Source: an uncultured virus (IMG/VR IMGVR_UViG_3300030118_002929)
Lineage: Duplodnaviria; Heunggongvirae; Uroviricota; Caudoviricetes
IMG/VR virus record: IMGVR_UViG_3300030118_002929
Strand: one strand, 5' to 3'
DNA: 20,000 bases
The position numbers and the translations under genes were made by a program. The notes beneath the pieces were generated by a model. That model saw only the letters and a list, made by a program, of their open reading frames with translations. It was not told the DNA's origin and did not search any database. Below, one piece after another: positions 147 through 20,000 of the stretch; position 1 is the first letter of the stretch; each line of letters begins with the position of its first letter.

Positions 147-2456
147 ATGATGATAAAGAGTGAAAATATGAATATACAAAATACCAAATCAAGTCTAGCA
201 AAATTACTTGCTACAGAAAATATTACTGTAGAATTTGCTAATGTGCAAACTGCACAATTCGATGTAAAAAACAGAATTTTAGTCTGCCCTCAATATAAAG
301 ATATGACTAATGAGATGTACGATTTATTCGTAGGGCATGAAGTTTCTCATGCTTTATATACTCCTTCAGATGGTCATGAGCAATATCCAGTTAAAGACAA
401 AAACTTTCACTCTTTTGTCAATGTAGTTGAAGATGCTAGAATTGAGAGATTTATTCAAGATAAGTATCCTGGTCTTAAAAAAGATTTCTACAAAGGTTAC
501 TCTCAGTTAAAAGAAAAAGATTTCTTCAGCATTAAAGATAAAGATGTTAATTCTTTATTGCTTATTGATAGATTAAATCTTAAAGCAAAATTAGGTACTC
601 AAATTGATATTGAGTTCAATGAAACTGAACAAAAGTTTTTTGATGCTATGATGACTAGCAAAACTTTTGATGAAGTTCTAAAAATTTCTAAAGACCTTTT
701 TGACTATTGTGGTAAAGAGTTAGAAGAAAAAGAAAAAGAAGGTAAAGATGTTTCCGCTTATACTATTAAGCAAGATGAGAATGGTGTCGAAGTAGAGCAA
801 TCAGAAACTTCTACACAAGAAGAAAATCAAGAAGAAGAAAAAAATAATATGGGTGCTGGCGATAGTACCGATAACGATACTACTGAAACTGACCAAGAAG
901 AAAAAGCAGATACTACTAGCAACGAAAATTCAGATGATGAAAAATCAGATGATGATAGTTCTAAAACTGCTACCGAAGATAATAAGAACAAAGGCAAACA
1001 ATCAGATACCGATGAGGCAACTAAACCAGGTGCTAAGTCGATTACTGATACTGCAAGTCAACAATCTCTAAAAGAACAATTAGAAGATGATGAAAGCAAG
1101 ATTTTTGACTATTGCGATTTCCCTAAAACTTTAGATTATAAAAAGTTCATTGTTGACAATGCTACAGTTATTAAAGAGTTAACTCAATATTGGGCACAAA
1201 CTAACAATGATTATAAAAGCATTCTTCAGAGAAATGCTAAGAAATTTAAAGATGACAACCAAAAAGTTGTTAATTACTTGCACAAAGAATTTGAAATGAA
1301 AAAAGCGGCAGATAGTTATGCCAGAGCAAGTGAGAGTAAAACTGGTGTTATCAATACTAACAAGTTATTTTCTTACAAGTACAATGAAGACTTGTTTCAA
1401 AAAGTAATGACTACTCCTGATGCTAAAAATCACGGTATGATTTTCTATCTTGATTGGTCAGGCAGTATGCATGATAATATGAAAGGTACTATTATGCAGT
1501 TGTTGAACCTAGTTCTATTCTGTAAAAAAGTAAATATACCTTTTAGTGTTTATGCATTTAGTTCTCATTATAGAAAATATTCTAGTGAGTTTGCAAATAT
1601 TAATAATACTAATGCACAATCTAAAAACTTGAATGAGATGATTATTCACCCTTACAAGTTTTCACTTCTAGAGTTGATTACTAGTGATTGTAAAACTGCT
1701 CAATTCAACCAAGCATTTGAGTGTTTAGTTGCTTTAATGAATATCTACTCACACGATAAAAGATATGAAGGCGACTTTTGTTATTTCGATTTGCCTAGCA
1801 GTTATTACCTAGGGCAGACACCTTTGAATGATGCAATCGTATGTTCTAAGTATATGATACAAGATTTTCAATCTAAGCATAAAGTTCAAATTATGAATGC
1901 AGTATTCTTAACTGATGGTTCTAGTCATTGTCTAGAAGGTAAGTTCGCTATTGAGAACGGCACGATGACCGCTAAAGATGTTGGGTATACTAATGCAGTT
2001 ATCAGAGATAAAAAGTCTAGAGTTGAGATATCTGATTTATCTAAAGGCAAATATTATAGAAGAGCAGATTTTACCAAGAAGTTGTACCTAGCAGTAAAAC
2101 AAGTTACTGGTGCTAATATGATTGGTTTCTTTGTTGCCTCTAGAAGAGATTTAGAATATGCATATTGGGATGCTCAGAGTTGCCCTAATATGAAAAAAGC
2201 AAAAATCAGATATTCAGATGATTTCAAAAAGTATGTTAAGAAAAACAAATTTTTTGCTTCTACTGTTAGCGGTCTTGATACCTTGTTTGTAGTGCAAGGG
2301 GGTAAAGATTTGCATGTTGATAATAGTTCAGTTCTAGATGAATTACAATCAGATGCTAAAAAAAGTCAGATCCAAAGTGCCTTCAAAAAAGCAAGTAAAG
2401 GCAAATTGCAATCTAGAATTATGCTAAACAAGTTTATTGAGAATATTGCCGCCTAA
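147..2456 (+). CDS. CobT-like protein: N-terminal zincin-like peptidase domain, acidic linker and C-terminal VWA domain (start may be the ATG at 168)
   Basis: GHEVSH (HExxH) and NVVEDARIE; long D/E/T/S linker; MIDAS motif LDWSGSM, TPL, LTDG; adjacent to a MoxR-type AAA+ gene. Confidence 0.85.
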   Translation: MMIKSENMNIQNTKSSLAKLLATENITVEFANVQTAQFDVKNRILVCPQYKDMTNEMYDLFVGHEVSHALYTPSDGHEQYPVKDKNFHSFVNVVEDARIERFIQDKYPGLKKDFYKGYSQLKEKDFFSIKDKDVNSLLLIDRLNLKAKLGTQIDIEFNETEQKFFDAMMTSKTFDEVLKISKDLFDYCGKELEEKEKEGKDVSAYTIKQDENGVEVEQSETSTQEENQEEEKNNMGAGDSTDNDTTETDQEEKADTTSNENSDDEKSDDDSSKTATEDNKNKGKQSDTDEATKPGAKSITDTASQQSLKEQLEDDESKIFDYCDFPKTLDYKKFIVDNATVIKELTQYWAQTNNDYKSILQRNAKKFKDDNQKVVNYLHKEFEMKKAADSYARASESKTGVINTNKLFSYKYNEDLFQKVMTTPDAKNHGMIFYLDWSGSMHDNMKGTIMQLLNLVLFCKKVNIPFSVYAFSSHYRKYSSEFANINNTNAQSKNLNEMIIHPYKFSLLELITSDCKTAQFNQAFECLVALMNIYSHDKRYEGDFCYFDLPSSYYLGQTPLNDAIVCSKYMIQDFQSKHKVQIMNAVFLTDGSSHCLEGKFAIENGTMTAKDVGYTNAVIRDKKSRVEISDLSKGKYYRRADFTKKLYLAVKQVTGANMIGFFVASRRDLEYAYWDAQSCPNMKKAKIRYSDDFKKYVKKNKFFASTVSGLDTLFVVQGGKDLHVDNSSVLDELQSDAKKSQIQSAFKKASKGKLQSRIMLNKFIENIAA

Positions 2457-2517
2457 AAAATGACGGAATATATAGGGAAAATGACGAAAAAAAAATTAAA
2501 AAAAACCGGAATAACCC

Positions 2518-2547
2518 TTGACAAACTCAATATAAAAATGTTAATAT
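2518..2547 (+). promoter_or_regulatory. sigma70-type early promoter (extended -10)
   Basis: TTGACA (2518-2523), 18-bp spacer ending TGn, TAATAT (2542-2547); A-tract UP-like element upstream; same layout as the promoter at 108. Confidence 0.7.
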
Positions 2548-2593
2548 GAATTATATGATGAAAAAAGAAAACAATGTGAAAGGTGATATCTAT

Positions 2594-3778
2594 ATGATGT
2601 TAGATGATAAACAAAAATCCTTTGTTGACTTAGCAGTATCAGAATACGGTACTCAGTTAAAAAGGTCTGAACTGATTGCAGTACATAAAAAGCATAAAGT
2701 TCCGTTCCCATATTGGTTAGTTAATAGTGACCAATTTAAATTAGGCAAAGGTCTTTATCAGATGCCTGTTGAGGGTACTCCTCTTCAAGCGACTGGTCAT
2801 GAAGTTGCCAACTCTCCTATAAATACTGTAGAAGAGGCACCTGCTATGAAGAAAAAAATATCAGTAGCAGATACTACTATCATGAATTTGATACCTAGCA
2901 AATATACTAACTATGTTCCTTTCGGGCAGTTTAGTGATGTTAAGAGTATCGTAAAATCTAAAATGTTCTATCCTGTCTTTATTACTGGTCTCTCTGGTAA
3001 TGGTAAGACTATGATGGTTGAGCAAGTATGTGCCCAACTCAATAGAGAGTTTTTTAGAGTTAACATAACTATTGAAACCGATGAAGATGATTTACTCGGA
3101 GGTTACAGATTGCAAGATGGTGAGACCGTATGGTTTGATGGTCCCGTTGTTCAAGCAATGAAGAAAGGTGCCGTACTTCTTTTAGATGAAGTTGACTTAG
3201 CATCTAATAAGATTATGTGTATTCAACCTATCCTCGAAGGTAAGGGTGTTCTTCTTAAAAAGATAAATCAGTTTGTAGAACCAGCACCTGGTTTTCAGAT
3301 TATCGCAACTGCTAATACAAAAGGTAAAGGTAGTGAAGATGGTAGATTTATCGGAACGAATGTACTTAATGAAGCATTCCTTGAGAGATTTCCTATCACA
3401 ATCGAACAAGAGTATCCTTCAGTTGCTATTGAGAAAAAAATTCTCACTAAAGAATTAGCATCTGCTGGGAAACCTGATGAAGATTTTGCCGACAAGTTAA
3501 CCAAGTGGGCAGACATTATCAGAAAAACTTTTCTAGATGGAGGCATTGATGAAATCATTGCCACTAGAAGACTTGTTCATATCGCTAAGGCATATGCCAT
3601 GTTTGGCAATAAAATGAAAGCGATTGAATTGTGCATTAACAGATTTGATGACGAAACAAAGTCATCATTTAAAGACCTTTACACAAAGGTCGATGCCGAT
3701 GCCATTCAAACTGATCCATCAGTTGATGGCGAAAGTGTAGTCAATCCTAAAGTAGAGATTGACAAAGCACCGTTTTAA
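2594..3778 (+). CDS. cobS: CobS-like MoxR-family AAA+ ATPase
   Basis: Walker A GLSGNGKT, Walker B LLLDE, sensor TAN, LERF. SD AAAGGTG precedes the ATG at 2594, whereas the ORF-track start 2546 overlaps the promoter. Confidence 0.88.
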   Translation: MMLDDKQKSFVDLAVSEYGTQLKRSELIAVHKKHKVPFPYWLVNSDQFKLGKGLYQMPVEGTPLQATGHEVANSPINTVEEAPAMKKKISVADTTIMNLIPSKYTNYVPFGQFSDVKSIVKSKMFYPVFITGLSGNGKTMMVEQVCAQLNREFFRVNITIETDEDDLLGGYRLQDGETVWFDGPVVQAMKKGAVLLLDEVDLASNKIMCIQPILEGKGVLLKKINQFVEPAPGFQIIATANTKGKGSEDGRFIGTNVLNEAFLERFPITIEQEYPSVAIEKKILTKELASAGKPDEDFADKLTKWADIIRKTFLDGGIDEIIATRRLVHIAKAYAMFGNKMKAIELCINRFDDETKSSFKDLYTKVDADAIQTDPSVDGESVVNPKVEIDKAPF

Positions 3779-3787
3779 GTTTATTAT
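3759..3787 (+). promoter_or_regulatory. sigma70-type promoter
   Basis: TTGACA (3759-3764), 17 bp, TATTAT (3782-3787). Confidence 0.65.
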
Positions 3788-3800
3788 GAACTTGAATATA

Positions 3801-3822
3801 GCGAGGAGGACAACCTCCTCGT
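3801..3822 (+). promoter_or_regulatory. GC-rich 5' leader hairpin / inverted repeat
   Basis: GCGAGGAGG-ACAA-CCTCCTCGT, no U tract, located between the promoter and the SD of the HTH gene. Confidence 0.6.
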
Positions 3823-3843
3823 TCAACATTATAAAGGAGCATT

Positions 3844-4098
3844 ATGATGCCAGCAAAAACAAAAAGTCAACTTAATAAGTTGCTTAATTTCTTTCAAAAA
3901 GGTGGAACTCTAACTGCCGCTCAGGCAGAGAAGAAGTTCGGTGTAAATCGAATGTCTGCTAGGGTTTACGATTTGAGAGACCAAGGTTACTGTATCTACG
4001 GTAATACTAAGAAGGGTAGCAATGTCGTTTCATATAGACTTGGTACTCCATCAAGAGAAATTATCAAAGCAGGTTTTAAAGCATTAAGAACTGCATAA
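3844..4098 (+). CDS. small winged helix-turn-helix protein
   Basis: LTAAQAEKKFGVNRMSARVYDLRDQGYCI is an HTH-like pattern followed by a wing (YRLG); strong SD AAAGGAG. Confidence 0.7.
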   Translation: MMPAKTKSQLNKLLNFFQKGGTLTAAQAEKKFGVNRMSARVYDLRDQGYCIYGNTKKGSNVVSYRLGTPSREIIKAGFKALRTA

Positions 4099-4125
4099 GA
4101 TAAAAGTATCACCTTTATCATCATA

Positions 4126-4154
4126 GGGAGGGTGCAATGCCCTCCCACTTTTTT
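4126..4154 (+). terminator. rho-independent terminator
   Basis: GGGAGGG-TGCAATG-CCCTCCC followed by ACTTTTTT. Confidence 0.85.
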
Positions 4155-4171
4155 AATATGAGGTTATTAAT

Positions 4172-4450
4172 TTGAAAAAATTACAAGATAAAATTGAATA
4201 TAAGTTTAGTGAAGATAAGATATTCGAAGATATAATGGAACATATTAATGGAACTTACGATGCCCATTATTCTAAAAACAAATTTCAATCTACCGAGTTC
4301 ATTGTAGATTGCGGTCATGCTGAAGGTTTCTGTATAGGTAATATTATTAAGTATGCACAAAGGTTTGGCAAAAAAGAAGGAATGAACAAAAAAGACTTGT
4401 ATAAGATAGTACATTATTGTATTATCTTACTATCAACTTTAGAAAACTAA
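4172..4450 (+). CDS. DUF3310-like protein (SaV / T7 gp1.7 nucleotide kinase-like), TTG start
   Basis: HY..., GFCIGNIIKYAQRFGKK, DLYKIVHY; SD GAGG. Confidence 0.7.
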   Translation: MKKLQDKIEYKFSEDKIFEDIMEHINGTYDAHYSKNKFQSTEFIVDCGHAEGFCIGNIIKYAQRFGKKEGMNKKDLYKIVHYCIILLSTLEN

Positions 4451-4463
4451 TGAGGACTATATT

Positions 4464-5126
4464 ATGCAAATAAGCAAAAACACTTTTGAAGTTTTGAAAA
4501 ACTTCTCAGAGATAAATGAGAACTTACTGATTAAACCTGGTAATGAACTCAAAACTATTTCTGTAATGAAAAATGTATTAGCGAAGGCGACTATAGAAGA
4601 AACTTTTGATAAAGAGTTTGCTATCTATGATTTGAACTCCTTCTTAAATGTATTATCACTATATGATAATCCTGAGATTACACTAAATGATGATTATCTT
4701 ACTATATCAAAAGGTAACTCATCTACAAAATTCTGGTATGCTGATCCTAGTTTAGTAGTAGCACCTACTAAAGATATCAATATGCCTAGTAAAGATATTG
4801 AAGTAAACATTACACAAGGTAATTATACAGACCTATTGAAAGCATCTAATATCATGCAACTACCTGATATCGCACTAGTGAGTGAAGAAGGTAAAATCAA
4901 AATGGTTGCTACAGATAAAAAGAATAAAACTAGTAATGTTTATGAAGTAGAAGTAGGAACAACGACTTCTAAATTCAGTATGTATTTCAAAAGAGATAAT
5001 TTGAGAATGATACCTGGCGATTATGACCTAGCGATATCACACAAAAATATATCTCATTGGTCTAACAAAAATAAATCTCTACAGTATTGGGTAGCATTAG
5101 AAACCGATAGTAAGTTTGAGGGTTAA
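4464..5126 (+). CDS. gp45: DNA polymerase sliding clamp
   Basis: MQISKNTFEVLKNFSEIN, FAIYDLNSFL, YWVALE; T4 gene order 45-44-62-regA-43. Confidence 0.95.
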   Translation: MQISKNTFEVLKNFSEINENLLIKPGNELKTISVMKNVLAKATIEETFDKEFAIYDLNSFLNVLSLYDNPEITLNDDYLTISKGNSSTKFWYADPSLVVAPTKDINMPSKDIEVNITQGNYTDLLKASNIMQLPDIALVSEEGKIKMVATDKKNKTSNVYEVEVGTTTSKFSMYFKRDNLRMIPGDYDLAISHKNISHWSNKNKSLQYWVALETDSKFEG

Positions 5127-5128
5127 TA

Positions 5129-6076
5129 ATGAATAAACTTAATGATGAATATTTGTGGGTTGAGAAATATCGACCTCAAACTGTAAGTGATTGTATCTTA
5201 CCTAAACATCTAGAAGATACATTTTTAAACTTTGTAGAGAACGGCGAGATACCTAATTTGTTACTATGTGGTACTGCAGGTGTTGGTAAGACAACGATTG
5301 CAAAAGCACTATGTCAGCAAATGGGTTATGACTGGATAATCTTAAATGGTTCTAGTGAAGGTGACATTGATACCTTACGAACTAAGATAGTTAACTTTGC
5401 ATCTACTGTATCCTTTTCAGGCAAAGGTAAAGTTGTTATCTATGATGAGGCAGATTACTTAACTGCAGTAACACAACCTGCACTAAGAAATTTTATTGAA
5501 GAGTTTAGTAAGAATTGTAGATTTATATTTACATGTAACTATAAGAATAAAATTATACCTGCTCTCCATTCTAGATGTTCAGTTATAGAGTTTTCTGTAC
5601 CTAAGAATGAGAAACCTAAAATAGCAACTAGGTTCTTAAACAGATTAGAAGATATTTTTAAAGAAGAAAAAATAAAGTATCAAGAACAATCTATTGCAGA
5701 GGTTGTTACTAAATTTTTTCCTGATTTTAGAAGAACATTAAACGAGTTACAAAAACTTTCTATCGGCGGCAGTATAGATGCTGAGGCAATCAAAGGTGCT
5801 GGTGATGTAAGTATTAAAGAGGTCATTGAATATTGTAAAGTTAAAGACTTCAAGAATATGAGAAAGTGGGTAGCAGATAATATCCATGTAAACGATGCGA
5901 ATACTATTTTCAGAAAGATTTACGATACAATGTATGAATATCTTAAACCACAATCTGTACCTGTTGCAGTTTTAAAGATTGCAGACTATCAGTACAAGAA
6001 TGTGCATGTAGCAGACCCAGAGGTCAATCTAACTGCCTTCTTTACTGAAATAATGGTCGATTGTGAGTTTATGTAA
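5129..6076 (+). CDS. gp44: clamp loader large (AAA+) subunit
   Basis: LWVEKYRP, GTAGVGKT, DEAD, SRC motifs. Confidence 0.96.
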   Translation: MNKLNDEYLWVEKYRPQTVSDCILPKHLEDTFLNFVENGEIPNLLLCGTAGVGKTTIAKALCQQMGYDWIILNGSSEGDIDTLRTKIVNFASTVSFSGKGKVVIYDEADYLTAVTQPALRNFIEEFSKNCRFIFTCNYKNKIIPALHSRCSVIEFSVPKNEKPKIATRFLNRLEDIFKEEKIKYQEQSIAEVVTKFFPDFRRTLNELQKLSIGGSIDAEAIKGAGDVSIKEVIEYCKVKDFKNMRKWVADNIHVNDANTIFRKIYDTMYEYLKPQSVPVAVLKIADYQYKNVHVADPEVNLTAFFTEIMVDCEFM

Positions 6077-6777
6077 TGCCTACACCTTATCTACACCACG
6101 AATTATTTGAACCTAATAAAGTTATCGAAGTTCAAGAGCATTCTAATAGTTTAGGAAAGTATCTTGTCATTGATAATTTTTATCAAAGACCTGATGATAT
6201 AGAGTACATGTTAGAGACTTCTTGGTCTCAAATGTGGAAATATAAACCAGGTTCTAGAAATACAATAGACTATCATGATTGTAGATTAACAATACCATAT
6301 AACATGACCAGACATGTAAGAGAGTTTGAAAGTCAAAAATTGATATGGGGTATGGTACAACAAAAACTTAATTATACAATTAAACAAGCAGTACAAAATT
6401 ATGATTTTAATTTGTTCAAATGGATTAATATACCTGAACATAATATACAATCATATCCTCACCAAGATGATGCAGGCAAACAAAGTATGATTGCCTCTGT
6501 AATATATCTTAACAAAGATAAAGATTGTAATGGTGGTACTGCATTTTATGAAGAAGATAATCTAAATGAATTTGTTGGTCATATGGAAGATGATAATATA
6601 CAGGTAGATATATCGCAACACTATACCCTTATAGATGTAGTGAAAGCATCATTTAACAAGTGTGTTATATACCCAGGTTGGTGGGTACATGGCGCATATA
6701 TAGATGACCATTCTTTCTATTCAGGCAATAGATGGAGAAAGAACCAAGTTTATTTTTTTGAATTAGCAGGATTTTAA
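6076..6777 (+). CDS. 2OG-Fe(II) oxygenase superfamily protein (DUF6445-like)
   Basis: VIDNFY, PHQD (HxD), SVIYLN, GGTAFY, distal H in WVHGA, R in RKNQVYF. Confidence 0.8.
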   Translation: MPTPYLHHELFEPNKVIEVQEHSNSLGKYLVIDNFYQRPDDIEYMLETSWSQMWKYKPGSRNTIDYHDCRLTIPYNMTRHVREFESQKLIWGMVQQKLNYTIKQAVQNYDFNLFKWINIPEHNIQSYPHQDDAGKQSMIASVIYLNKDKDCNGGTAFYEEDNLNEFVGHMEDDNIQVDISQHYTLIDVVKASFNKCVIYPGWWVHGAYIDDHSFYSGNRWRKNQVYFFELAGF

Positions 6778-6778
6778 T

Positions 6779-7159
6779 ATGACACCATTTGATTATGTAA
6801 AAGCGATTAATTATACAAAAAGCAATTTAATCGTAGATGATTTAACAGAAAAAGAATATAACCCATTTATCGTTAATCGTGCCTTGAGTATGGGCATGGA
6901 TACCGTTCTACAAGCGAATGAGATGAATAGAAGTCCTCATCTAGAAAAGCGGTTACAATTCGACTTTTTACTAAATAGTATTAGTAAGCGAAAGCGATTT
7001 GATAAATGGCAAAAAGCAGAGAAGAGTGAAGACTTAGAATATGTTAAACAATACTTCAATTACTCTTATCCTAAAGCAGTTCAGGCATTATCAATACTTT
7101 CACCGAAACAATTAAATGAAATAAAAACTATATTAAATAAAAAAGGTGGAACAAAATGA
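6779..7159 (+). CDS. gp62: clamp loader small subunit
   Basis: PFDYVKAIN, YNPFIVNRALS, ANEMN, QFDFLLNSI, KRKRF; gene position. Confidence 0.93.
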   Translation: MTPFDYVKAINYTKSNLIVDDLTEKEYNPFIVNRALSMGMDTVLQANEMNRSPHLEKRLQFDFLLNSISKRKRFDKWQKAEKSEDLEYVKQYFNYSYPKAVQALSILSPKQLNEIKTILNKKGGTK

Positions 7160-7587
7160 GTGAATGGAATGTAGAGAACATGGTTGAGATTAAATTAAAG
7201 CAACCAGATGATTTCCTAAAAGTTAGAGAGACATTATCTAGAATAGGTATTGCCTCTAAAAAAGATAAAAAATTATATCAATCTTGCCACATACTTCATA
7301 AGCAAGGTAGATACTTCATAGTACACTTCAAAGAGTTGTTTGGATTAGATGGTAAGAAAACCAACTTCTCAGATGAAGATATTCAAAGAAGAAATACAAT
7401 AGTTAAACTCTTAATTGATTGGGGTCTAGTTGAAATAGTCGATGTTACTAGAATAGAAAAACAAGCACCTCTATCTCAAATTAAAGTGATATCTTTCAAA
7501 GAAAAGAAAGATTGGATTTTAGAGACAAAATATAATATTGGTAAAAAGAGACAAACTGAAGATGTGGGAAATAAACCAGCAAATTGA
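7156..7587 (+). CDS. regA: translational repressor RegA
   Basis: PDDFLKVRETLSRIGIAS, LYQSCHILHKQGRYFIVHFKELF. Confidence 0.97.
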   Translation: MSEWNVENMVEIKLKQPDDFLKVRETLSRIGIASKKDKKLYQSCHILHKQGRYFIVHFKELFGLDGKKTNFSDEDIQRRNTIVKLLIDWGLVEIVDVTRIEKQAPLSQIKVISFKEKKDWILETKYNIGKKRQTEDVGNKPAN

Positions 7588-8227
7588 GTATGCTAACGAA
7601 GGTATAGAATTAGTAAGACCTTTCGGTCCTTTTATCTATAAGCATAAGATAACAAGTTATTTGCATCATCAATTAACTGAATGGAGTAAAGACCTATCAG
7701 ATAAAAAAGAGGTAGGTGGTAAAAGAAGTGGTGCAAATTATCAATCAGATTTGTTTCATGAATTTCAAGATACCGCTAATGATGAAATTACAAAATCTTA
7801 TAATTTATTAGGTCATATAGACCTCGATAGTTTAAAAGAAATTAAAGAGCATTGTTCAGGTTATGTAAATGCCTATTGTAAACATCCTGTACAGGCAAGA
7901 ACACATTTAAGAGAACGAGTTAGACTAACACACTTCTGGATTAATATACAACAAGAACGACAATGGCAACCAAAACATAATCACACAGGTGATTTATCCT
8001 TTGTCATTTATGTCAAACAACCTAAGTCTAATAAATCTGCAGTAGGTAATATTACCTTTTCATATGGTGAGACTATGAACTGGAGTGTCGATGATATGCA
8101 GATAAAACCAGAAGAAAAAGATATTTTAATATTCCCAGCATGGTTAAAGCATCAAGCATTTCCATTTGTTGAGAATAATCAAACAAGGATTACTGCCGCA
8201 GGTAATGTGGCAATAATGAATAAATAG
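7562..8227 (+). CDS. 2OG-Fe(II) oxygenase (TIGR02466 / 2OG-FeII_Oxy_5-like)
   Basis: WINIQ, HNH (HxH), LSFVIYV, IFPAWLKH, RITAAGN. The first ATG is at 7562 and overlaps the end of regA. Confidence 0.8.
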   Translation: MWEINQQIEYANEGIELVRPFGPFIYKHKITSYLHHQLTEWSKDLSDKKEVGGKRSGANYQSDLFHEFQDTANDEITKSYNLLGHIDLDSLKEIKEHCSGYVNAYCKHPVQARTHLRERVRLTHFWINIQQERQWQPKHNHTGDLSFVIYVKQPKSNKSAVGNITFSYGETMNWSVDDMQIKPEEKDILIFPAWLKHQAFPFVENNQTRITAAGNVAIMNK

Positions 8228-8259: not shown

Positions 8260-8265
8260 ATATTA

Positions 8266-8743: not shown

Positions 8744-8756
8744 CTAAATAAATTAC

Positions 8757-8787: not shown

Positions 8788-8804
8788 AATATAATGGAGA
8801 AATC

Positions 8805-11909: not shown

Positions 11910-11930
11910 TGGTAAAAGTTATTTTCTTTG

Positions 11931-11959
11931 TTGACAAATTAAGCATGTTCAATTATAGT
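11931..11959 (+). promoter_or_regulatory. sigma70-type promoter for uvsX
   Basis: TTGACA (11931-11936), 17 bp, TATAGT (11954-11959). Confidence 0.65.
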
Positions 11960-11979
11960 GATAGAAATACGAGGTAGCA

Positions 11980-13002
11980 ATGACAGATTTTTTAAAGAGT
12001 ATAATAAAAGAAAGCAAAAATGAATTTGCATCTTTAGTAGAAGATGGTATTCAAGCAGGCGATGTAGCGAGTTACATTGATACAGGTTCTTATGTATTCA
12101 ATGCTCTACTAAGTGGTAGTATGTATGGTGGGTTGCCATCTAACAAGATTACTGCAATAGCAGGTGAGAGTGCAACAGGTAAAACCTTCTTTGCATTAGG
12201 TATCTGTAAACACTTCTTAGATAAAGACCAAGATGCAGGTGTCATTTATTTTGAAACAGAGAGTGCATTAACAAAAGATATTATAGAAGAACGAGGTATT
12301 GATAGCAAAAGAATGGTTATCATGCCAGTAACTACAGTTCAACAATTTAGAACTGAAGCAATCAGAATTATTGATAAGTATCTAGAACAACCTGAGGCAG
12401 ATAGAAAACCTATCATGTTTGTATTAGATAGTTTAGGTATGTTATCAACTACAAAAGAAATAGAAGATACTGCATCAGGTTCTGAAACTAGAGATATGAC
12501 AAGGGCACAACTTGTTAAAGGTACATTTAGAGTATTGACTTTGAAACTAGGTCAAGCAAAAGTACCTATGATTGTAACTAATCATACTTATGACCAGATG
12601 GGTTCTATGTTCCCTCAGAAAGTTATGGGTGGTGGGTCAGGTTTACAATATGCCGCATCTACTATTGTCTTCTTATCGAAGAAAAAAGAAAAAGAAGGTA
12701 CTGAAGTTGTAGGTAATATTATTCATTGCAAATTACAAAAATCAAGAATAACTAAGGAAAATTCTATGGTTGATGTATCACTTAGATATAAAGGTGGTCT
12801 CAACAAACATTATGGTCTATTAGAACTTGCTGAACAGGCAGGAGTATTTAAAAAAGTATCAACTCGTTTTGAACTACCTGATGGTTCGAAAAGATATGGT
12901 AAAGAAATACTTCATAATCCTGACCAGTTCTTTACTGAAGAAGTAATGCAACAAATAGAAGAATATGCGAAAGAGAAATTTTCCTATGCCGGCGAAATAT
13001 AA
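11980..13002 (+). CDS. uvsX: RecA-like recombinase UvsX
   Basis: [34 protein letters not shown]. Confidence 0.96.
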
Positions 13003-13270
13003 ATTTGTAGAAAACGGAAAAGAAATAGCAGTTAGAATACTTGAAGGTCAATTTGATGAAGTTACTCTTCAGTATTTTAGAGTGCAGTTTGGTGATGTCA
13101 ACGAAGACGGCACTAGACCTATGAGATTTCAATACAAGATTATAGATAATCCCAGACTTACTCCTATAGAAGAAAAAGAGTTTCTACCTGTAGCAGGTGA
13201 TATACTTGTCGATTGCATAGAAAAACAATTAGAAAAGAATGAGGTGATATATACAAATGGTACGGATTGA
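12986..13270 (+). CDS. probable gp40-like head vertex assembly chaperone
   Basis: Position between uvsX and gp41 as in T4, similar size; start at 12965 or 12986. Confidence 0.55.
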
Positions 13271-14672
13271 ACGAACAATATTAGCAAACTTAATTACAAA
13301 CGAACCTTTTGTTAGAAAAGCATTACCTTTTATCAACGAAAAATATTTTCATGACAGTTCAGAAAAGATAATATTTCAGGTTATTAATCAACATATCAGA
13401 GAATACAATACACTACCTACAAAAGAAGTTACCTCTATTGCTATTCAGAATGTAGAAAATTTAGGCGAACCTGAGTATAAAAAAGCAACTGACATTGTAA
13501 ATAGTTTAGAAAATAGTAAAGCAGATATTGATTGGTTAGTCGATACTACTGAAAAGTTTTGTCAAGATAAAGCAATCTATAATGCAATCGCAGATAGTAT
13601 AGAAATAATCGAAGGTAAGAATAAGAAACAAACTACAGGTGCTTTGCCTGAGATACTATCAAATGCTTTATCTGTTACATTTGATCCTAATATAGGTCAT
13701 GATTACTTCGGTCAATCAGATGACCGTTTTGAATTTTATCATACTAAAGAAACTAAGATACCTTTTAATCTAAGATATTTTGATACGATTACAAAAGGTG
13801 GGTTACCTAATAAAACACTCAATGTTGCCATTGCAGGTACAGGTGTAGGTAAGTCGTTATTCATGTGTCATCTAGCGGCGAACTATTTGATGCAGAATAA
13901 AAATGTATTGTATATCACTTTAGAAATGGCAGAAGAGAGAATAGCAGAAAGAATAGATGCTAACTTAATGAACCTAGATGTTCAATCTGTTCAAGAACTA
14001 CCTAAGTCGATGTTCGATAACAAGATAGAACAAGTTAGAAAAGAGACTACAGGTAAGTTAGTAGTAAAAGAATATCCTACTGCCTCTGCACACAAAGGTC
14101 ATTTCTCATCTCTATTAAATGAATTAGCATTAAAGAAATCTTTCAAACCTGATGCAATCTTTATTGATTATTTAAATATATGTGCATCACAAAGATTTAA
14201 AGCAGGTGCTAATATTAATTCATACACATTAATTAAATCTATTGCTGAAGAACTAAGAGGTCTCGCAGTAGAATATAATTTACCTATTATCTCAGCAACA
14301 CAAACTACAAGACAAGGTTTCAATAGCACCGATATAGGTTTAGAAGACACTTCAGAATCCTTTGGGTTACCTGCTACAGTTGATTTCATGTTTGCATTGA
14401 TATCTACTGAAGAGTTAGAATCCCAAAATCAAATAATGGTCAAACAATTAAAAAATCGTTATAACGATCCAACTAAGTTCAAAAGGTTTTTACTAGGAAT
14501 TGATAGGTCAAGAATGAAAGTTTATGACCTCGAGGAATCTGCACAAGCAGATATTATAAACCCACCTAAAGCACCTACTATGGTTGAAGTTGTAGAGACT
14601 AATGCTTTTGACAAACTAAAGGAGAAACGAAGTGAAACGAAATACAAAGACTTCTCAAACTTCAAGGTCTAA
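13257..14672 (+). CDS. gp41: replicative DnaB-like helicase
   Basis: GTGVGKS, LYITLEMAEERIAERIDAN, KEYPT, IDYLNIC, SATQ, SESFGLPAT, QLKNRY. Confidence 0.97.
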   Translation: MVRIERTILANLITNEPFVRKALPFINEKYFHDSSEKIIFQVINQHIREYNTLPTKEVTSIAIQNVENLGEPEYKKATDIVNSLENSKADIDWLVDTTEKFCQDKAIYNAIADSIEIIEGKNKKQTTGALPEILSNALSVTFDPNIGHDYFGQSDDRFEFYHTKETKIPFNLRYFDTITKGGLPNKTLNVAIAGTGVGKSLFMCHLAANYLMQNKNVLYITLEMAEERIAERIDANLMNLDVQSVQELPKSMFDNKIEQVRKETTGKLVVKEYPTASAHKGHFSSLLNELALKKSFKPDAIFIDYLNICASQRFKAGANINSYTLIKSIAEELRGLAVEYNLPIISATQTTRQGFNSTDIGLEDTSESFGLPATVDFMFALISTEELESQNQIMVKQLKNRYNDPTKFKRFLLGIDRSRMKVYDLEESAQADIINPPKAPTMVEVVETNAFDKLKEKRSETKYKDFSNFKV

Positions 14673-14874
14673 GAAACGATTTAAGTATCAATATGACGGC
14701 GAAAATAACACTTATCAGATATTCGATACTAAGTTCGAACAAGTCGTAATTCACAAATCCACGAAGAAATACGCAGTTCTTACATCGGCAAGTATGAACA
14801 AAAACCCACCTTTTGGTGATTTTGAGATACCTAGATTTCTGAGAATTGACAATACCGACAAAAAATTTTCATAA
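14632..14874 (+). CDS. hypothetical protein, GTG start
   Basis: SD AAAGGAG 7 nt before the GTG; 80-aa ORF that overlaps the end of gp41. Confidence 0.55.
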   Translation: MKRNTKTSQTSRSKKRFKYQYDGENNTYQIFDTKFEQVVIHKSTKKYAVLTSASMNKNPPFGDFEIPRFLRIDNTDKKFS

Positions 14875-14877
14875 ATA
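14870..14877 (+). promoter_or_regulatory. T4-type late promoter-like element
   Basis: CATAAATA, one mismatch to TATAAATA, upstream of the putative virion-protein block. Confidence 0.5.
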
Positions 14878-14890
14878 CTTATAATAACCC

Positions 14891-14919
14891 TTGACTATTG
14901 CCACTATATGATGTATTAT
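14891..14919 (+). promoter_or_regulatory. sigma70-type promoter
   Basis: TTGACT, 17 bp, TATTAT; shares ATAACCCTTGAC with the promoter at 2518. Confidence 0.6.
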
Positions 14920-14943
14920 AATAGTAGTATTAAAGAGGATTCT

Positions 14944-15624
14944 ATGTATAAGCATTTAAGACAAGTCAAGCAAGATATAGACCAGAGTTTCGAAGGTTTA
15001 CTACCTAGAGAAACTATGAGTGTCCATACTATCGCTAGAAAATTAGCGAAGAGAATGGGTGCGAAACATGGTATGCGTTTTGTTAGTGTCAACGAACCTA
15101 TAGGTAAGCGACATGCAGATGGCGAGTTATTTTGTGGTGGTTCATTCTATCCTTGGTATGCAGATGAAAATGATTGGTATGATAGTGAAGTTTGTTTAAA
15201 TTATAAAACTAAAGATATAAATTTAGGTAGATGGTGGGTGTATAAAACTTTTCATCAACAAATGACTGCCGCTATATTACATGAATTAAATCATAGACAA
15301 CAGTATTTAAGTAGAGGTAAAAAAGAAAGAAAAAATGAAATCTTTAAATCCTCTCATAGAAAAAAGAAAGTTGCGATAGAAGAAAATTATTATGGGTCAC
15401 TTGATGAGATACAATCTTATGCAATAGATGTTGCCCTAGAGTGTCATTACAATGATGTTACACCAAGACAAGTGTGGAAACATATAGATGGTCGTATAAG
15501 TAGACCTAAATATACTACACTACATATATACAAGAACATGTTTAAAGATAAGGATCATCCTGTAATGAAAAAATTAAAGTATTATTCTTACATGGCATAT
15601 AATCAGATATTAAAACCATGCTAA
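14944..15624 (+). CDS. HExxH zincin-like hypothetical protein
   Basis: AAILHELNHRQQY plus downstream YYGSLDEIQSYA; SD GAGG before the ATG at 14944. Confidence 0.65.
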   Translation: MYKHLRQVKQDIDQSFEGLLPRETMSVHTIARKLAKRMGAKHGMRFVSVNEPIGKRHADGELFCGGSFYPWYADENDWYDSEVCLNYKTKDINLGRWWVYKTFHQQMTAAILHELNHRQQYLSRGKKERKNEIFKSSHRKKKVAIEENYYGSLDEIQSYAIDVALECHYNDVTPRQVWKHIDGRISRPKYTTLHIYKNMFKDKDHPVMKKLKYYSYMAYNQILKPC

Positions 15625-16862
15625 GATTTTCAGATTACGAACAATTAGACGAAGCATCTAAAAATCTTCACTTAACTCATATTGAGGAAACAATAATTAC
15701 TGAAGGTTCTGAAGGTGCAAACAATGCCTTAGGTTTTCTAAAAGGTGTTCGTGATATGTTATCAGGTTCAACTAGAAGTTCGGTTAACATCACAACAAAG
15801 TGGGACGGTGCACCTGCAATTTTTTGTGGCATAGATCCTGCAGATAAGAAATTTTTTGTAGCAACTAAATCAGTATTCAATAAAAGTCCTAAGTTAAATA
15901 AAACAACTGCCGATATTCGTAAAAATCATACGGGTGGATTAGTATCTAAATTAGAGGTATGCCTAAAAGAACTACCTAAATTAGGCATCAAAGGTGTCTT
16001 ACAGGGTGACTTAATGTTCACAAAAGGTGATTTAAAAACTTCTAATATTGAAGGTGTAGACCATTATACATTTCAACCGAACACGATAGTTTACGCAGTA
16101 CCTAAAGATGATCCTTTCGGCAAGTTTATAAACAAGGTAAAACTAGGCATTATATTTCATACAGAATATAAAGGTGCTAAATTAGAGGATATGAAGGCAT
16201 CATTTAATATAAATATAAAGAAGTTGCGTAAAAGCAATTCTATATGGTTCGATGATGCATCATATAAAGATGTATCAGGCATGATTACTTTGACTAAAAA
16301 TGAGACAGATAAACTTGATAAAATGATTGATAATGTGGAAAGTCAAGTTGGTAAGTTGTCTTCATTCTTAGATAAAATGTCAGAGGAATTTGACGAAAAA
16401 AATAGATTTGCGATACCTACGAACTTCAAAGTTCATTTGAACTCTTACTTTAAAGGAACAGGTGAACTTAAAGATGCATCTAAAACTATAGATGACTTTG
16501 TTACATATTGGGAAGACAAGATGGACAAAGAAGTAGATAGTAAAAAAACAGATGCCGCTAAAGATAAGTACCGTGCAATGAAAGAAGACGGACTTAAAAA
16601 AATTGAAAGCACAAAGACTAAACTTGTGCAAACAGTTGATATGTATATTAATATAATGGATGCAAAAGACTTATTAGTGAAGAAATTGTCTAAAGTGAAG
16701 AGCATAGGGACATTTCTGCAGACAAATGATGGATTAAAGACTACGGCACCAGAAGGTTTCGTAGCAGTAGATAGAGTTAAAGGTAATGCAGTTAAGTTGG
16801 TCAATCGACTTGAATTTAGTAGAGCAAACTTTACTGCAACTAAAAATTGGGTGAACGGTTAA
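15618..16862 (+). CDS. DUF6267-like protein with ATP-dependent ligase-type nucleotidyltransferase motifs
   Basis: TTKWDGAP (KxDG), VLQGDL, EGFV, AVKLV; N-terminus MLRFSDYEQLDE|A resembles a capsid-targeting tag. Confidence 0.7.
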   Translation: MLRFSDYEQLDEASKNLHLTHIEETIITEGSEGANNALGFLKGVRDMLSGSTRSSVNITTKWDGAPAIFCGIDPADKKFFVATKSVFNKSPKLNKTTADIRKNHTGGLVSKLEVCLKELPKLGIKGVLQGDLMFTKGDLKTSNIEGVDHYTFQPNTIVYAVPKDDPFGKFINKVKLGIIFHTEYKGAKLEDMKASFNINIKKLRKSNSIWFDDASYKDVSGMITLTKNETDKLDKMIDNVESQVGKLSSFLDKMSEEFDEKNRFAIPTNFKVHLNSYFKGTGELKDASKTIDDFVTYWEDKMDKEVDSKKTDAAKDKYRAMKEDGLKKIESTKTKLVQTVDMYINIMDAKDLLVKKLSKVKSIGTFLQTNDGLKTTAPEGFVAVDRVKGNAVKLVNRLEFSRANFTATKNWVNG

Positions 16863-19800
16863 ATGACTATAAAATTCACAGACCTTTCTAAAAGGTTATC
16901 AGAGCAAAAAAGCGACACAGTTGTTTTTGCATTCGGTAGGTTCAATCCTCCTACCATAGGACACGAAAAACTTTTCAAAAAAGTTGAAAGTGAAGGAAAG
17001 AGAGCAAAAGACCATTTTGTCTATGCATCTCATTCTGAAGATAACAAAAAAAATCCACTTAATCCACGATTAAAGCAGAGAATACTGAAAAAGGCATTCC
17101 CACGAAACAATGTGGTTATCTCCTCGAAACAAATGCCTACTGCTCTTCACATTGCATCCGCATTGTATGAAAAAGGTTATAAAAACCTAGTGATGGTTGC
17201 AGGTAGTGATAGAGTACAAGAATTTAAAAAATTACTAGACAGATACAACAACGAAAAATCAAGACATGGTTTTTACAACTATGAAACTATTAATGTTGTA
17301 TCATCAGGTGAAAGAGATGCCGATGCTGAAGATGTATCAGGTGCATCAGGAACTAAAATGAGAATGTATGCCGCTAAAGGCGACTACGAAAGTTTTAAAA
17401 AATATTCACCTAGCAAATTATCAGATAGAGAAGTCAAACAAACTTTTGATGCAGTAAGAAAAGCATTACCTAATTTACAAGCAACAATGAACTTTCCTGT
17501 TATTAGTGTAAGAGAGCAATATCTCTTAGGCGAACTATTTAATGTAGGAGATATTATTGTTGATTTAAACGAAGAACAAGAATACGAAATCGTAGAGCAA
17601 GGTCCTAATTTTGTTTATGTTAAAGATGAACAAGGTACAGTATATACAAAATGGTTAACTGATATATCGGAGAAGAAAAAAGATGACGAAAAAGACCGAA
17701 CTGAAATACCCCAAGATAGAGATATCAAAGATAAGAAAGGTACCCAACCTGCGAAATATTACAAAGGAATGTCCAAGTCAACAAAAGATGCCAGACATGC
17801 ATTCTTTAAGAAACAAGATAAATCACCAGATAGCGACCCCTCAACTTACAAACCAGCACCTGGCGATGCTACAGGAAAAACAAAACCTTCAAAGCACACT
17901 AAGAAATTTAAACAAATGTTCGGCGATGAAAGTATACCAGAAAAATCAAATCCTAGGATACCTAGAAAACCAGGTCAACCAGCAAACAGTAAAAAACACT
18001 CAGACTTATACACCGATGAAAATCCTAAAGGAACTATTCAAGGTCTCGGTTTCAAAGATGTCGAAACTGCAAAAGCAAGTGTAAACAAAATAGAAAAATC
18101 TGGTAAGACACATGCTCATAAAATTCAAGCGGCAATCGCCATGGAACAAAGAGCAAAAGTCATGGGTAAAAAAGCAGAGGCGGCAGTATATAGAGAATAT
18201 ATCGAGAAGATGAAAAAGAAAACCAAAGAGATGCAAAAAGAAAGTCTTTGGGATAATATTCGTAAAAAGAGAGAAAGAATTAAAAGAGGTTCAGGCGAGA
18301 AGATGAGAAAAGTTGGTGACAAAGGTGCACCAACACCAGCACAAATGCAAAGAGCAAAAGCGGCGAGTGAAGATACAGATGAAGATTTAGATAAGTTCAT
18401 AAAAGACTTAGAAGATAATACACCTAACGAAAAACAATTCGATGAGAAAGCACCTAATACTGCAGATGCTATGAAAAGATATAAATCAGGCAAAGCAGGA
18501 TTTACAGATATCGCACATTTAAAAGCAAAAGGTTTAATTAAAAGAGCAGACGGCACTAAAAAGAAGTCACCTAAGTATGAAGAAGTAAACGAAGACTTTG
18601 GTCATTATCCGGCGCAGGCATCTGATGCAAAGTCAAAGAATAAAGATGATTGGGTTGCTGGTGATCCTGATGCTGATTACACCGTACAAGGTTTCAATGG
18701 TTCAAATGCTGGTGCAGTTCTTGATGCACTAAACAAGCAAGTTGAAAATGAACGTGGACTTACACTTAAAAGTTTTATTGATAGACAAGAAATCACAGAA
18801 AGAAGTTTAACACCTGACGAAAAGAAAAAATTAAGAAAATATGAAAAAGATGTGCCTATGAAAGATTTCATAGACAGATATGGTAAAGACGAAGGTCCTT
18901 CAATCTATTATGCTACAATTACTAAAATGGCAAAAGGTGAAGAAGTTGACTTAGAAGAACTACCTAAAGGCACATATTTAAGAAAAGATCCTAAATTACC
19001 TAATCTTAAAATACAAGTTAAGAGAAGAAGAGGTAAGATTATTAAAAGTAATTTTGCAGAATTTGTTGAGAGTTATGAGATAGGTAAAGATTACGCAAAG
19101 CATACTGCAGATATGACACCTGGTCAAAATTACAAAGAGATTATGGGTGAGAAGAAATCTAAAGTAAAATTAAAAGTAGCAAACATAGACGATTTGTATG
19201 AAGATGAATACGATGATAATCCTGCAGACGATCCACCATCAATAGATTCCTATGATGAACCTATACCTTATGGTGAACCTATCGAAGTACCTGATACTGC
19301 AGACTTAGAAAAAGAATTATTTAAGCAAGTAGATAAGATAGATGACTTAGAAGACATTGCATATCTTTATCAAGAAGATGATGATGCAGAGTTTGTTGAT
19401 GAAAAAGATTTTCTAGCGGCGGCACTAACACCTTCTCAAAGATTTAAGAGAGCGGCGATTATGAAAAGACTAGCAAAGAAAATTGCTAGACGAAGAGCAT
19501 TAGCATTAAAAAGACCATCTTCAAATGAAAAGTTAAAACAGAAATCAAGAAAACATGCTATTAACTTATTGCGTAAAAAGTTTGCTAGAGGTAAACCTTA
19601 TAACGAATTAGGTTTTGCACAAAGGGCGAGAATAGATGATATCATTCGAAAAAAATCAGCAGTAGTTGGTAAGATTGCAGTTAGACTACTTCCTAAAATT
19701 AAAAAGATGGAAATGGAAAGAATTGCATCGAACAGAAAATCACAAGCAAAAACTGAAGAAGTTCAGTTCGAACAGATAAATCTTAAATCATTCTTAGGTG

Positions 19801-20000
19801 AGGCATTCGACCAAGGTATCAACGCACCTGACCAAGATAGCGAAGATTTAAATAAACTTGTTACCTTCTTGCAAAGTATAAGAGGTGATGAGTTAGTAAT
19901 GGTTGCAAACGAAAAAGGTAAAGTAAAAATACGAAGATCCTTTGAAGGTGATAAAGAAAAGATAGATGACTTTATTGAAAAAGAAGGATTAAAGATTAAT
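16863..20000 (+). CDS. large multidomain protein with N-terminal cytidylyltransferase-family (HIGH) nucleotidyltransferase domain; runs off the window
   Basis: Hand-translated: ATG at 16863, no stop in 1046 codons. Motifs FGRFNPPTIGH, KNPL, VAGSDR, SGTKMR, followed by many small modules. Not in the ORF track because it has no stop. Confidence 0.88.
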   Translation, partial: MTIKFTDLSKRLSEQKSDTVVFAFGRFNPPTIGHEKLFKKVESEGKRAKDHFVYASHSEDNKKNPLNPRLKQRILKKAFPRNNVVISSKQMPTALHIASALYEKGYKNLVMVAGSDRVQEFKKLLDRYNNEKSRHGFYNYETINVVSSGERDADAEDVSGASGTKMRMYAAKGDYESFKKYSPSKLSDREVKQTFDAVRKALPNLQATMNFPVISVREQYLLGELFNVGDIIVDLNEEQEYEIVEQGPNFVYVKDEQGTVYTKWLTDISEKKKDDEKDRTEIPQDRDIKDKKGTQPAKYYKGMSKSTKDARHAFFKKQDKSPDSDPSTYKPAPGDATGKTKPSKHTKKFKQMFGDESIPEKSNPRIPRKPGQPANSKKHSDLYTDENPKGTIQGLGFKDVETAKASVNKIEKSGKTHAHKIQAAIAMEQRAKVMGKKAEAAVYREYIEKMKKKTKEMQKESLWDNIRKKRERIKRGSGEKMRKVGDKGAPTPAQMQRAKAASEDTDEDLDKFIKDLEDNTPNEKQFDEKAPNTADAMKRYKSGKAGFTDIAHLKAKGLIKRADGTKKKSPKYEEVNEDFGHYPAQASDAKSKNKDDWVAGDPDADYTVQGFNGSNAGAVLDALNKQVENERGLTLKSFIDRQEITERSLTPDEKKKLRKYEKDVPMKDFIDRYGKDEGPSIYYATITKMAKGEEVDLEELPKGTYLRKDPKLPNLKIQVKRRRGKIIKSNFAEFVESYEIGKDYAKHTADMTPGQNYKEIMGEKKSKVKLKVANIDDLYEDEYDDNPADDPPSIDSYDEPIPYGEPIEVPDTADLEKELFKQVDKIDDLEDIAYLYQEDDDAEFVDEKDFLAAALTPSQRFKRAAIMKRLAKKIARRRALALKRPSSNEKLKQKSRKHAINLLRKKFARGKPYNELGFAQRARIDDIIRKKSAVVGKIAVRLLPKIKKMEMERIASNRKSQAKTEEVQFEQINLKSFLGEAFDQGINAPDQDSEDLNKLVTFLQSIRGDELVMVANEKGKVKIRRSFEGDKEKIDDFIEKEGLKIN

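Follow-up and report, generated by a model that had tools for sequence, protein, structure and literature searches.

A 20,000-nucleotide stretch from an uncultured virus of the Caudoviricetes, IMG/VR record IMGVR_UViG_3300030118_002929 (the whole stretch is called the window below), raises the question of why two palindromes, GATC and GANTC, survive in it only beside particular bases. GATC is the specificity of MboI/DpnII/Sau3AI-type restriction enzymes and GANTC that of HinfI-type enzymes, and avoidance of restriction sites is well known in phages: Staphylococcus phage K is devoid of GATC and Bacillus phages are devoid of GGCC. The original prediction, made from the letters of the window, held that the palindromes are purged unless they overlap a GG or CC dinucleotide, and it proposed that this could be the footprint of a context-specific DNA modification. 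We observed that the exemption is exact, that it depends on a four-base word, GGAH, read on one strand, and that it is restricted to T4-like myophages; a protective mark at this word is the explanation towards which we lean.

GATC and GANTC survive in the window only when flanked

We call a site flanked when a G precedes or a C follows the GATC or GANTC, and unflanked when it has neither. An exact recount gave the numbers reported in the original prediction: 14 GATC (13 GATCC and one GGATC), seven GANTC, all flanked (four GANTCC and three GGANTC), and two GCGC, both GGCGC. The GATC and GANTC sites are as follows.

1..20000, no strand: whole window, unflanked GATC = 0 and unflanked GANTC = 0
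2369..2373, minus strand: GATCC (GGATC on the minus strand), codons CAG-ATC-CAA
3713..3717, minus strand: GATCC, Asp-Pro GAT-CCA
4743..4747, minus strand: GATCC, Asp-Pro GAT-CCT
9121..9125, minus strand: GATCC, Asp-Pro
10536..10540, minus strand: GATCC, Asp-Pro, within the DNA polymerase gene
13683..13687, minus strand: GATCC, Asp-Pro
14466..14470, minus strand: GATCC, Asp-Pro
15552..15556, plus strand: GGATC, the sole plus-strand GGATC, Asp-His GAT-CAT with a G before
15834..15838, minus strand: GATCC, Asp-Pro
16110..16114, minus strand: GATCC, Asp-Pro
18663..18667, minus strand: GATCC, Asp-Pro
18987..18991, minus strand: GATCC, Asp-Pro
19230..19234, minus strand: GATCC, Asp-Pro
19936..19940, minus strand: GATCC, Arg-Ser AGA-TCC
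9027..9032, minus strand: GAATCC (GGATTC on the minus strand)
9464..9469, plus strand: GGACTC, the G flank being on the GACTC strand, the tolerated orientation (see below)
14355..14360, minus strand: GAATCC, Glu-Ser GAA-TCC
14418..14423, minus strand: GAATCC, Glu-Ser GAA-TCC
14534..14539, plus strand: GGAATC, Glu-Ser GAA-TCT with a G before
14937..14942, plus strand: GGATTC, Asp-Ser GAT-TCT with a G before
19245..19250, minus strand: GATTCC (GGAATC on the minus strand), Asp-Ser GAT-TCC

As a null model we used synonymous-codon shuffles that preserve the protein and the codon usage of each gene, with genes called as greedy longest open reading frames (ORFs); 500 shuffles were made for the window. 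Counts written x/y below are observed/expected under this shuffle, where an expectation is given. These expectations are conservative, since the codon usage on which they draw has already been shaped by avoidance. Unflanked GATC was expected 36.6 times (range 23-48) and unflanked GANTC 37.3 times; both were observed zero times, and zero was reached in none of the 500 shuffles for either word. The flanked sites were close to expectation, with 14/16.1 for GATC and 7/10.0 for GANTC. Codon-pair bias is thus not the cause of the pattern.

The choice of codons tells the same story. Asp before CCN (Pro) is encoded by GAT 11 times and by GAC twice, which is the genome-wide ratio (355:100), so that GATCC is neutral and not forced. 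Before CAN, CTN and CGN (His, Gln, Leu, Arg), GAT is used once and GAC 25 times (Fisher p = 5e-7), which bears out the earlier remark that Asp-Gln and Asp-His prefer GAC and Asp-Pro prefers GAT. Only one of 81 ATC codons comes after a codon ending in G, and Ser after Asp or Glu is AGY 34 times, TCC three times and TCT three times, every TCT case having a G before the GAN codon. These data confirm that unflanked sites are removed while flanked sites are neutral, and the observation is real and stronger than first noted. Its proposed extension to GCGC did not hold: in the window the counts are not significant (unflanked 0/3.5, flanked 2/4.4), and in larger relatives the missing flank classes of GCGC are those containing CGCG, plus TGCGCA and AGCGCT, so that the bias there is explained by avoidance of these three words.

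The rule is found again in related phages

Three overlapping contigs extend the window or overlap with it (L001, L084 and L167). L084 adds 9.4 kb downstream, where all eight GATC and all four GANTC are flanked, and L167 adds 9.9 kb upstream, where all seven GATC and both GANTC are flanked. In a sister species (species B, G003 plus part of L007, 32 kb, about 70% nucleotide identity), all 19 GATC and all 33 GANTC are flanked, and the shuffles predict about 61 unflanked GATC and about 53 unflanked GANTC. Taking species B together with the window lineage (species A, 29 kb), unflanked sites number zero in all four tests and 85 of 85 sites are flanked. The first 470 or so nucleotides of L001 hold the only unflanked GATC (156, 221) and the only RGCY (193, 309, 346) in the contigs of this phage; this segment (L001:1-470) does not align to the window and probably results from chimeric assembly or recombination at the contig end.

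Records in IMG/VR are fragments. The extent of the larger relatives is as follows: G007 (125,860 nt; L169-L175) is about 70% complete, G009 (L176-L184) is complete at 170,261 nt, and HTVC008M (NC_020484.1), of 147 kb, is a cultured phage. HTVC008M obeys the rule for both palindromes, with 0/195.9 unflanked and 83/124.1 flanked GATC, and 0/201.4 unflanked and 43/59.0 flanked GANTC. G007 does nearly the same (GATC: unflanked 0/243.5, flanked 35/118.3; GANTC: unflanked 1/227.8, flanked 107/85.3). In G009 the rule concerns GATC only (unflanked 3/225.7, flanked 131/170.4), GANTC not being avoided there (unflanked 389/329.5, flanked 139/133.7). The flank rule also appears in other genomes where GATC alone is under selection, namely Mosig (MT647606.1; L196-L203) and L134, L142, L144, L161 and L164. 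The flank matrices are clean, with occupied cells only in the 5'-G row and the 3'-C column. Among more distant polymerase relatives (at most 59% identity) GATC is not avoided, and some 30-50% of the sites carry a flank.

The exempting word is GGAH, read on one strand

The number of flanks matters. In HTVC008M the doubly flanked GGATCC is enriched (28/11) and the single-flank GATC classes stand at 0.25-0.69 of expectation; in Mosig only GGATCC remains (19/7) and all single-flank classes are at zero. In the window lineage single-flank GATC is at about 1.0 of expectation (27/28.1). These counts support a dose effect, in which a double flank is safer than a single flank and a single flank safer than none.

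The strand matters as well. When the G flank is on the GACTC strand only, the site is tolerated (GGACTC[AGT] 35/29.5); when it is on the GAGTC strand only, the site is purged (GGAGTC[AGT] 1/26.6). Rescaling the latter expectation by the control word GGAGT[AGT] (198/287.3) gives 18.3, and the depletion keeps a Poisson P of 2e-7. HTVC008M has four GGAGTC, all with a C on the other side, so that the opposite strand reads GGACTC. Since GGACTC is tolerated and GGAGTC is purged, the rescuing word is GGAH (complement DTCC) and not GG/CC. A longer motif was rejected, as the base before GG shows no further preference and follows the general GGA context.

A generic modification of GG/CC is also ruled out by other words that carry GG or CC at the critical base and are purged nevertheless: GGCC, GGCT and AGCC are all absent from the window, where base composition predicts 13.5, 27.5 and 28.5, the whole of RGCY (AGCT, AGCC, GGCT, GGCC) is at 0/92.7 by codon shuffle, and GGGCC/GGCCC in G007 is at 0/17. 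The original prediction is therefore partly supported: the kind of explanation was right, but the context that it named and its extension to GCGC were wrong. A context-dependent exemption exists, with GGAH/DTCC as the context in place of the GG/CC dinucleotide; likewise, the exemption behaves like context-specific protection (two palindromes, dose, strand, lineage), and the placement of the mark on GG/CC is contradicted.

The exemption is a property of T4-like myophages

We analysed eight podoviruses of SAR11 strains, each covered in full or over most of its length. In five of them (HTVC011P, HTVC019P, HTVC031P, HTVC109P and Bylgja) GATC is absent, single-flank GATC summing to 0/136.3, and the depletion of GANTC is no weaker at flanked than at unflanked sites. 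Indeed, the six GANTC that survive in HTVC019P are all unflanked (unflanked 6/54.7, flanked 0/16.0), and HTVC109P gives 46/62.0 unflanked and 9/23.0 flanked. Avoidance of GATC is not seen in HTVC010P or HTVC119P, and in HTVC200P (L242) it is confined to flanked GATC (unflanked 44/53.8, single-flank 6/35.9). The isolation strain of HTVC011P, HTVC019P and HTVC031P is Ca. P. ubique HTCC1062, as it is for HTVC008M. Since podoviruses from this strain purge flanked sites, the exemption belongs to the T4-like myophages rather than to the host strain, with the caveat on host ranges given below.

Some myophages lack the exemption. Melnitz, a related myophage, shows no rescue (GATC: unflanked 10/225.5, single-flank 10/135.9, double-flank 3/9.7), and GATC of either class is absent from L105, L113 and L114, which are T4-like and were found through the P0001 family described below. 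Other lineages avoid flanked words: L097, L115 and L162 avoid flanked GANTC only (GGANTC 2/22.9, GGANTD 125/148.9, HGANTC 118/142.0, with GGANVC near expectation), and L108 has lost flanked GATC fully (0/9.2) and unflanked GATC partly (6/20.9). That some T4-like lineages avoid the flanked word alone indicates that flanked sites are truly recognised as a class of their own.

The window phage and the search for a modifying enzyme

The window (GC content 32.5%) has 20 called genes, all on the plus strand, which form a T4-like replication module. It includes a sliding clamp, clamp loader, RegA, family B DNA polymerase, UvsX and a gp41-type helicase, together with a CobS-like AAA protein, Hsp20, a 2OG-Fe(II) oxygenase, a DUF6267 protein and a long cytidylyltransferase-like ORF. 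This ORF (16863-20000) is open at the window end, exceeds 1045 amino acids and has an N-terminal cytidylyltransferase-like domain followed by an uncharacterised remainder; the DUF6267 gene (15618-16862) lies directly before it. The window phage has no close cultured relative, and its DNA polymerase shares no more than 55% identity with cyanophage polymerases. The major capsid protein of G007 shares 64-67% identity with those of the Methylophilales phage Melnitz, whose host group is OM43, and of the Pelagibacter phages HTVC008M and Mosig, whose host group is SAR11. In addition, the ribosomal protein S21 of G007 is nearest to that of HTVC008M (58% identity), and its auxiliary genes (S21, PhoH, PstS and MazG, without photosystem genes) match the pelagimyophage group. 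The window comes from a T4-like marine myophage of this group. Its host, judged from these relatives, is probably SAR11-like, which fits with GANTC being the CcrM site. A bacterial metagenome-assembled genome reached via S21 (G011, GC content 24%) shows no avoidance and is probably not the host. The phage is common: 18 runs from 10 studies contain 57% or more of the words sampled from window positions 9001-19000.

The original prediction found no identifiable modifying enzyme in the window, and our gene annotation agrees. The only DNA-methylase-like gene near the window encodes a protein of a family that we call P0001. The genes considered in the neighbourhood and in HTVC008M are the following.

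L167:6766-8310, about 1.5 kb upstream of window base 1: P0001 family protein, 515-518 amino acids, 79% identity
L085:13367-14920: P0001 family protein
L085:12715-13395: class I methyltransferase of 227 amino acids, after the P0001 gene
HTVC008M NC_020484.1 86044-87255: DruA-like (PF14236) gene, just upstream of the peptidase-like/CobS-like pair, the position of P0001 in the window lineage
HTVC008M NC_020484.1 145437-145808, near the genome end: DUF1599 'nucleotide modification associated domain 1' protein, also in Melnitz

P0001 occurs in the window lineage, G007 and G009; it is encoded by more than 146 IMG/VR contigs, and closely by no cultured phage. It resembles amino-methyltransferases and has both a motif IV of the form (D/N/S)PP(Y/F) and an AdoMet motif I. 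Its motifs DPSxGWGGR and FTSPPYF are invariant in 26 of 26 homologues, and its N-terminal 260 amino acids form a domain of unknown fold. An SPPY motif is associated with N4-cytosine methylation, and P0001 scores marginally above the cut-off of PF01555, the N6/N4 DNA methylase family (30.4 vs 26.7 bits). In its predicted structure (mean predicted local distance difference test, pLDDT, 82.8), the nearest folds among the matches listed are the tRNA m2G methyltransferases Trm11, Trm14 and TrmN (Z 14.6-15.5, about 177 aligned residues, root-mean-square deviation 2.7-3.0), followed by generic class I methyltransferases; no DNA methylase is found among the best 50 structural matches. P0001 as the protector is weakened by this tRNA-methylase-like fold, by its absence from HTVC008M, Mosig and Melnitz and by its presence in the unrescued L105, L113 and L114. 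Loci L087-L166 all carry P0001 by construction and are uninformative on its absence.

Six-frame family searches covered HTVC008M, Mosig, Melnitz, G007 and G009. Among these five genomes PF01555 matched G007 and G009 only, through P0001; PF00145 matched Melnitz only; and PF05063 matched Mosig only, as a fragment at the record end. The Mosig record opens with this MT-A70 fragment, the gene probably having been split when the record was linearised. PF02086, PF02384, PF05869 and PF01702 matched none of the five, although the control for the PF01702 (TGT) search was positive in 14 of 14 reference genomes; the 7-deazaguanine that had been suggested as the mark thus finds no TGT/DpdA family gene in these relatives.

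A Pfam scan of HTVC008M, covering 117 of 150 ORFs of at least 95 amino acids fitting one locus (192 ORFs called), found numerous 2OG-Fe(II) oxygenases, methyltransferases of the small-molecule type, a radical SAM protein, two carbamoyltransferases, the DUF1599 protein and the DruA-like protein, and none of these families is distributed in step with the flank rule. The DruA-like gene was rejected as a counterpart of P0001, to which it shows no similarity; it is otherwise found in Mosig only. In a comparison of gene content, only the pair formed by a 769-amino-acid peptidase-like gene and a 410-amino-acid CobS-like AAA gene (window 147-3778) was shared by the window, HTVC008M, Mosig, G007 and G009 and missing from Melnitz; it is unconvincing as the protector.

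A possible protective mark at GGAH and its rivals

We propose that GATC and GANTC are purged by ordinary restriction-site avoidance, restriction being the probable selective agent, and that myophages may carry a strand-specific protective mark at GGAH (complement DTCC). A site would be exempt if at least one strand reads 5'-GGAH-3' over the site start (GGATC, GGAATC, GGATTC, GGACTC). The marked base would then be the A or the G in the GA half-site, or else the C in the TC half-site. With a mark on one strand a site would be largely safe and with marks on both strands fully safe, whereas an unmarked site would be lethal and be removed via synonymous changes. From the sequence statistics we judge this combination of avoidance and a myophage-specific mark slightly better than an even bet, because one rule serves two palindromes, protection depends on dose, the base is read on one strand and unrelated phages that infect the same hosts lack the exemption; in addition, the strand asymmetry is not predicted by a symmetric nuclease with an unread central base. 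The exemption would then be a covalent DNA modification, presumably made by the phage rather than by the host. The fuller proposal, that T4-like pelagimyophages including HTVC008M have an unrecognised strand-specific GGAH/DTCC modification, giving hemi- or full protection and made by a non-canonical enzyme, is more tentative and falls somewhat short of even chances; the enzyme would have to be non-canonical because the six-frame searches of HTVC008M found no gene of the Dam, C5, N4/N6, MT-A70 or TGT families.

Several observations weigh against such a mark. HTVC008M obeys both rules, yet in six-frame searches it has none of PF01555, PF02086, PF00145, PF02384, PF05869, PF05063 and PF01702. The search for methyltransferases beyond the window that the original prediction proposed, carried out on relatives, thus leaves HTVC008M with no match to any of six DNA methyltransferase families, so that such a gene was not found in every genome that shows the exemption. 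The P0001 profile finds no match in HTVC008M, Mosig or Melnitz, the Pfam scan of HTVC008M shows only small-molecule-type methyltransferases, and the only gene common to the rule-obeying myophages and missing in Mosig and Melnitz is one weak ORF of 157 amino acids. The vulnerability of single-flank GATC varies with the other flank, A being the worst (the AG flank class is at 2/43 in G007 and 13/51 in HTVC008M), which resembles an enzyme's own preference. Other avoided words with GG or CC are not rescued. Finally, a shared isolation strain does not prove that the same nucleases are met in nature, where host ranges may differ.

The main rival makes the flank selectivity intrinsic to host nucleases, which would cut G-preceded GA half-sites poorly and so exert weak selection with no DNA modification; the podoviruses would differ through other nucleases in nature or stronger exposure. 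It would account for the lack of a modifier gene in HTVC008M and for the graded depletion, in which one G flank helps less if the other flank is A and flanked GATC runs in a continuum of observed/expected values from 0.9 (window lineage) through 0.30 (G007) to about 0.2 (Mosig); moreover, related nucleases are known to share half-site contacts with zero or one central base (NgoMIV/Ecl18kI/PspGI). But it requires that at least two nucleases, or effectively three where GASTC is concerned, share one unusual exclusion, and it predicts neither the difference between GGACTC and GGAGTC, nor the full purging of flanked sites by podoviruses from the strain of HTVC008M, nor the unflanked state of all six GANTC surviving in HTVC019P. 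We know of no enzyme of HGATCD or HGANTCD specificity, which also counts against this explanation, and we regard it as unlikely.

Still less probable, in our view, are two complementary sets of host agents, one (Type IIS-like) acting on GGATC/GGANTC and the other on the remaining GATC/GANTC, with myophages unexposed to the GG-specific set. GGATC is a known Type IIS specificity (AlwI), and avoidance of flanked words alone does exist, for GGANTC in L097, L115 and L162 (2/22.9) and for GATC in HTVC200P (6/35.9 flanked vs 44/53.8 unflanked) and L108 (flanked 0/9.2). However, an agent that spares exactly the GG-flanked subset is still needed, so that this explanation collapses into either the intrinsic nuclease selectivity or the mark, and the GGAG exception stays unexplained. 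A by-product of coding constraints or of competing avoidance (of CCC in GAC-CCN, or codon-pair bias) has a negligible chance of being right. CCC (44/64) and GGG (101/137) are somewhat depleted in species A, and 11 of the 13 GATCC of the window are Asp-Pro pairs; but the shuffles, which fix protein and codon usage, still expect the missing unflanked sites, and Asp-Pro uses GAT at the genome-wide rate, two results that exclude it. Besides, surviving GANTC sites depend on the rare TCC codon or on a preceding G, and podoviruses lose the same flanked sites without difficulty.

Known systems and other avoided words

The loss described here resembles known phage palindrome avoidance in being strong or complete, directed at restriction-type palindromes, achieved by synonymous codons and lineage-specific; it differs in being conditional on a context of one or two bases on one strand (GGAH), exempt sites being neutral. 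Phages also protect their DNA with methyltransferases, such as Dam of T4 and P1, the multispecific 5-methylcytosine methylases of Bacillus phages and the chlorovirus enzymes M.CviQII (RAG) and M.CviPII (CCD). In the same manner, restriction sites that share bases with a short asymmetric word would be partly cross-protected, and only uncovered sites would need purging; unlike these systems, HTVC008M has no canonical DNA methyltransferase among the six families searched. Hypermodifications are a further parallel, with Mom of phage Mu acting at (C/G)A(C/G)N(C/T) and DpdA-dependent 7-deazaguanines placed at GA/GGC, as in phage CAjan: these too are partial, motif-dependent marks that block several restriction enzymes at once. 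The DpdA system departs from our case, TGT/DpdA matching none of the five related genomes and a mark on the second G of GG being contradicted by the purging of GGCC and GGCT.

Many other restriction-type words are missing as well: the window lineage is wholly or nearly devoid of RGCY, ACGT, CGCG and GAATTC. ACGT is at 1/23.3 in the window, and GAATTC and CGCG are at 0/10.4 and 0/7.8 in species A (29 kb); these observations take in L084, L167, G003 and G007 besides the window. RGCY is depleted 5-10 fold in cyanophage-like relatives too. G007 avoids GCWGC (1/140), CGWCG (2/81), TTTAAA (0/77) and GGAATT (10/70), as well as AACGTT, CACGTG, TACGTA, CTTAAG and GTGCAC. The words avoided by G009 are GCWGC (2/206), CGWCG (2/86), ACTAGT, ATCGAT, TCATGA, CAGTG and GACGC, and CGCG is wholly or nearly lacking in both G007 and G009. 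Mosig has ACGT at 0/233.

In the available portions of Seong et al. 2022 (PMC9516812), GANTC depletion is described in about half of pelagiphages, together with GANTC methylation in SAR11, and restriction-modification systems were not identified in the SAR11 metagenome-assembled genomes (MAGs). The available portions of Hiraoka et al. 2022 (PMC8919816) describe GAWTC-specific CcrM homologues and under-representation of GANTC in Alphaproteobacteria. They also report that marine Myoviridae-like viral MAGs share the N4-methylcytosine (m4C) motifs RGCY/CCWGG/GGWCC, which suggests that some lineages methylate RGCY and the window lineage avoids it. GGAH/DTCC is not among the motifs in those portions of PMC8919816, the nearest being GATCC in a gammaproteobacterial MAG, described as novel, and m4C CTCC in a Marinimicrobia MAG. 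We did not find a flank-conditional avoidance rule reported in the literature searched, including the available portions of PMC9516812 and PMC8919816.

Significance

Restriction-site avoidance is textbook knowledge, but not an avoidance whose limit coincides with a context of four bases read on one strand. If the selectivity is intrinsic to nucleases, it predicts uncharacterised SAR11-associated enzymes of HGATCD or HGANTCD type, despite the lack of restriction-modification systems in the SAR11 MAGs as given in the portions of PMC9516812 cited above. In either case the question is directly testable, since HTVC008M and its host are both cultured, and the rule provides a simple k-mer signature for telling T4-like pelagimyophages apart from podoviruses that infect the same hosts. 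If the mark at GGAH is real, the most abundant group of marine myophages would have an undescribed modification system without a recognisable enzyme, its recognition word would have been revealed by sequence statistics alone, and uncultured phages protected in this way could be recognised by their sequence signature.

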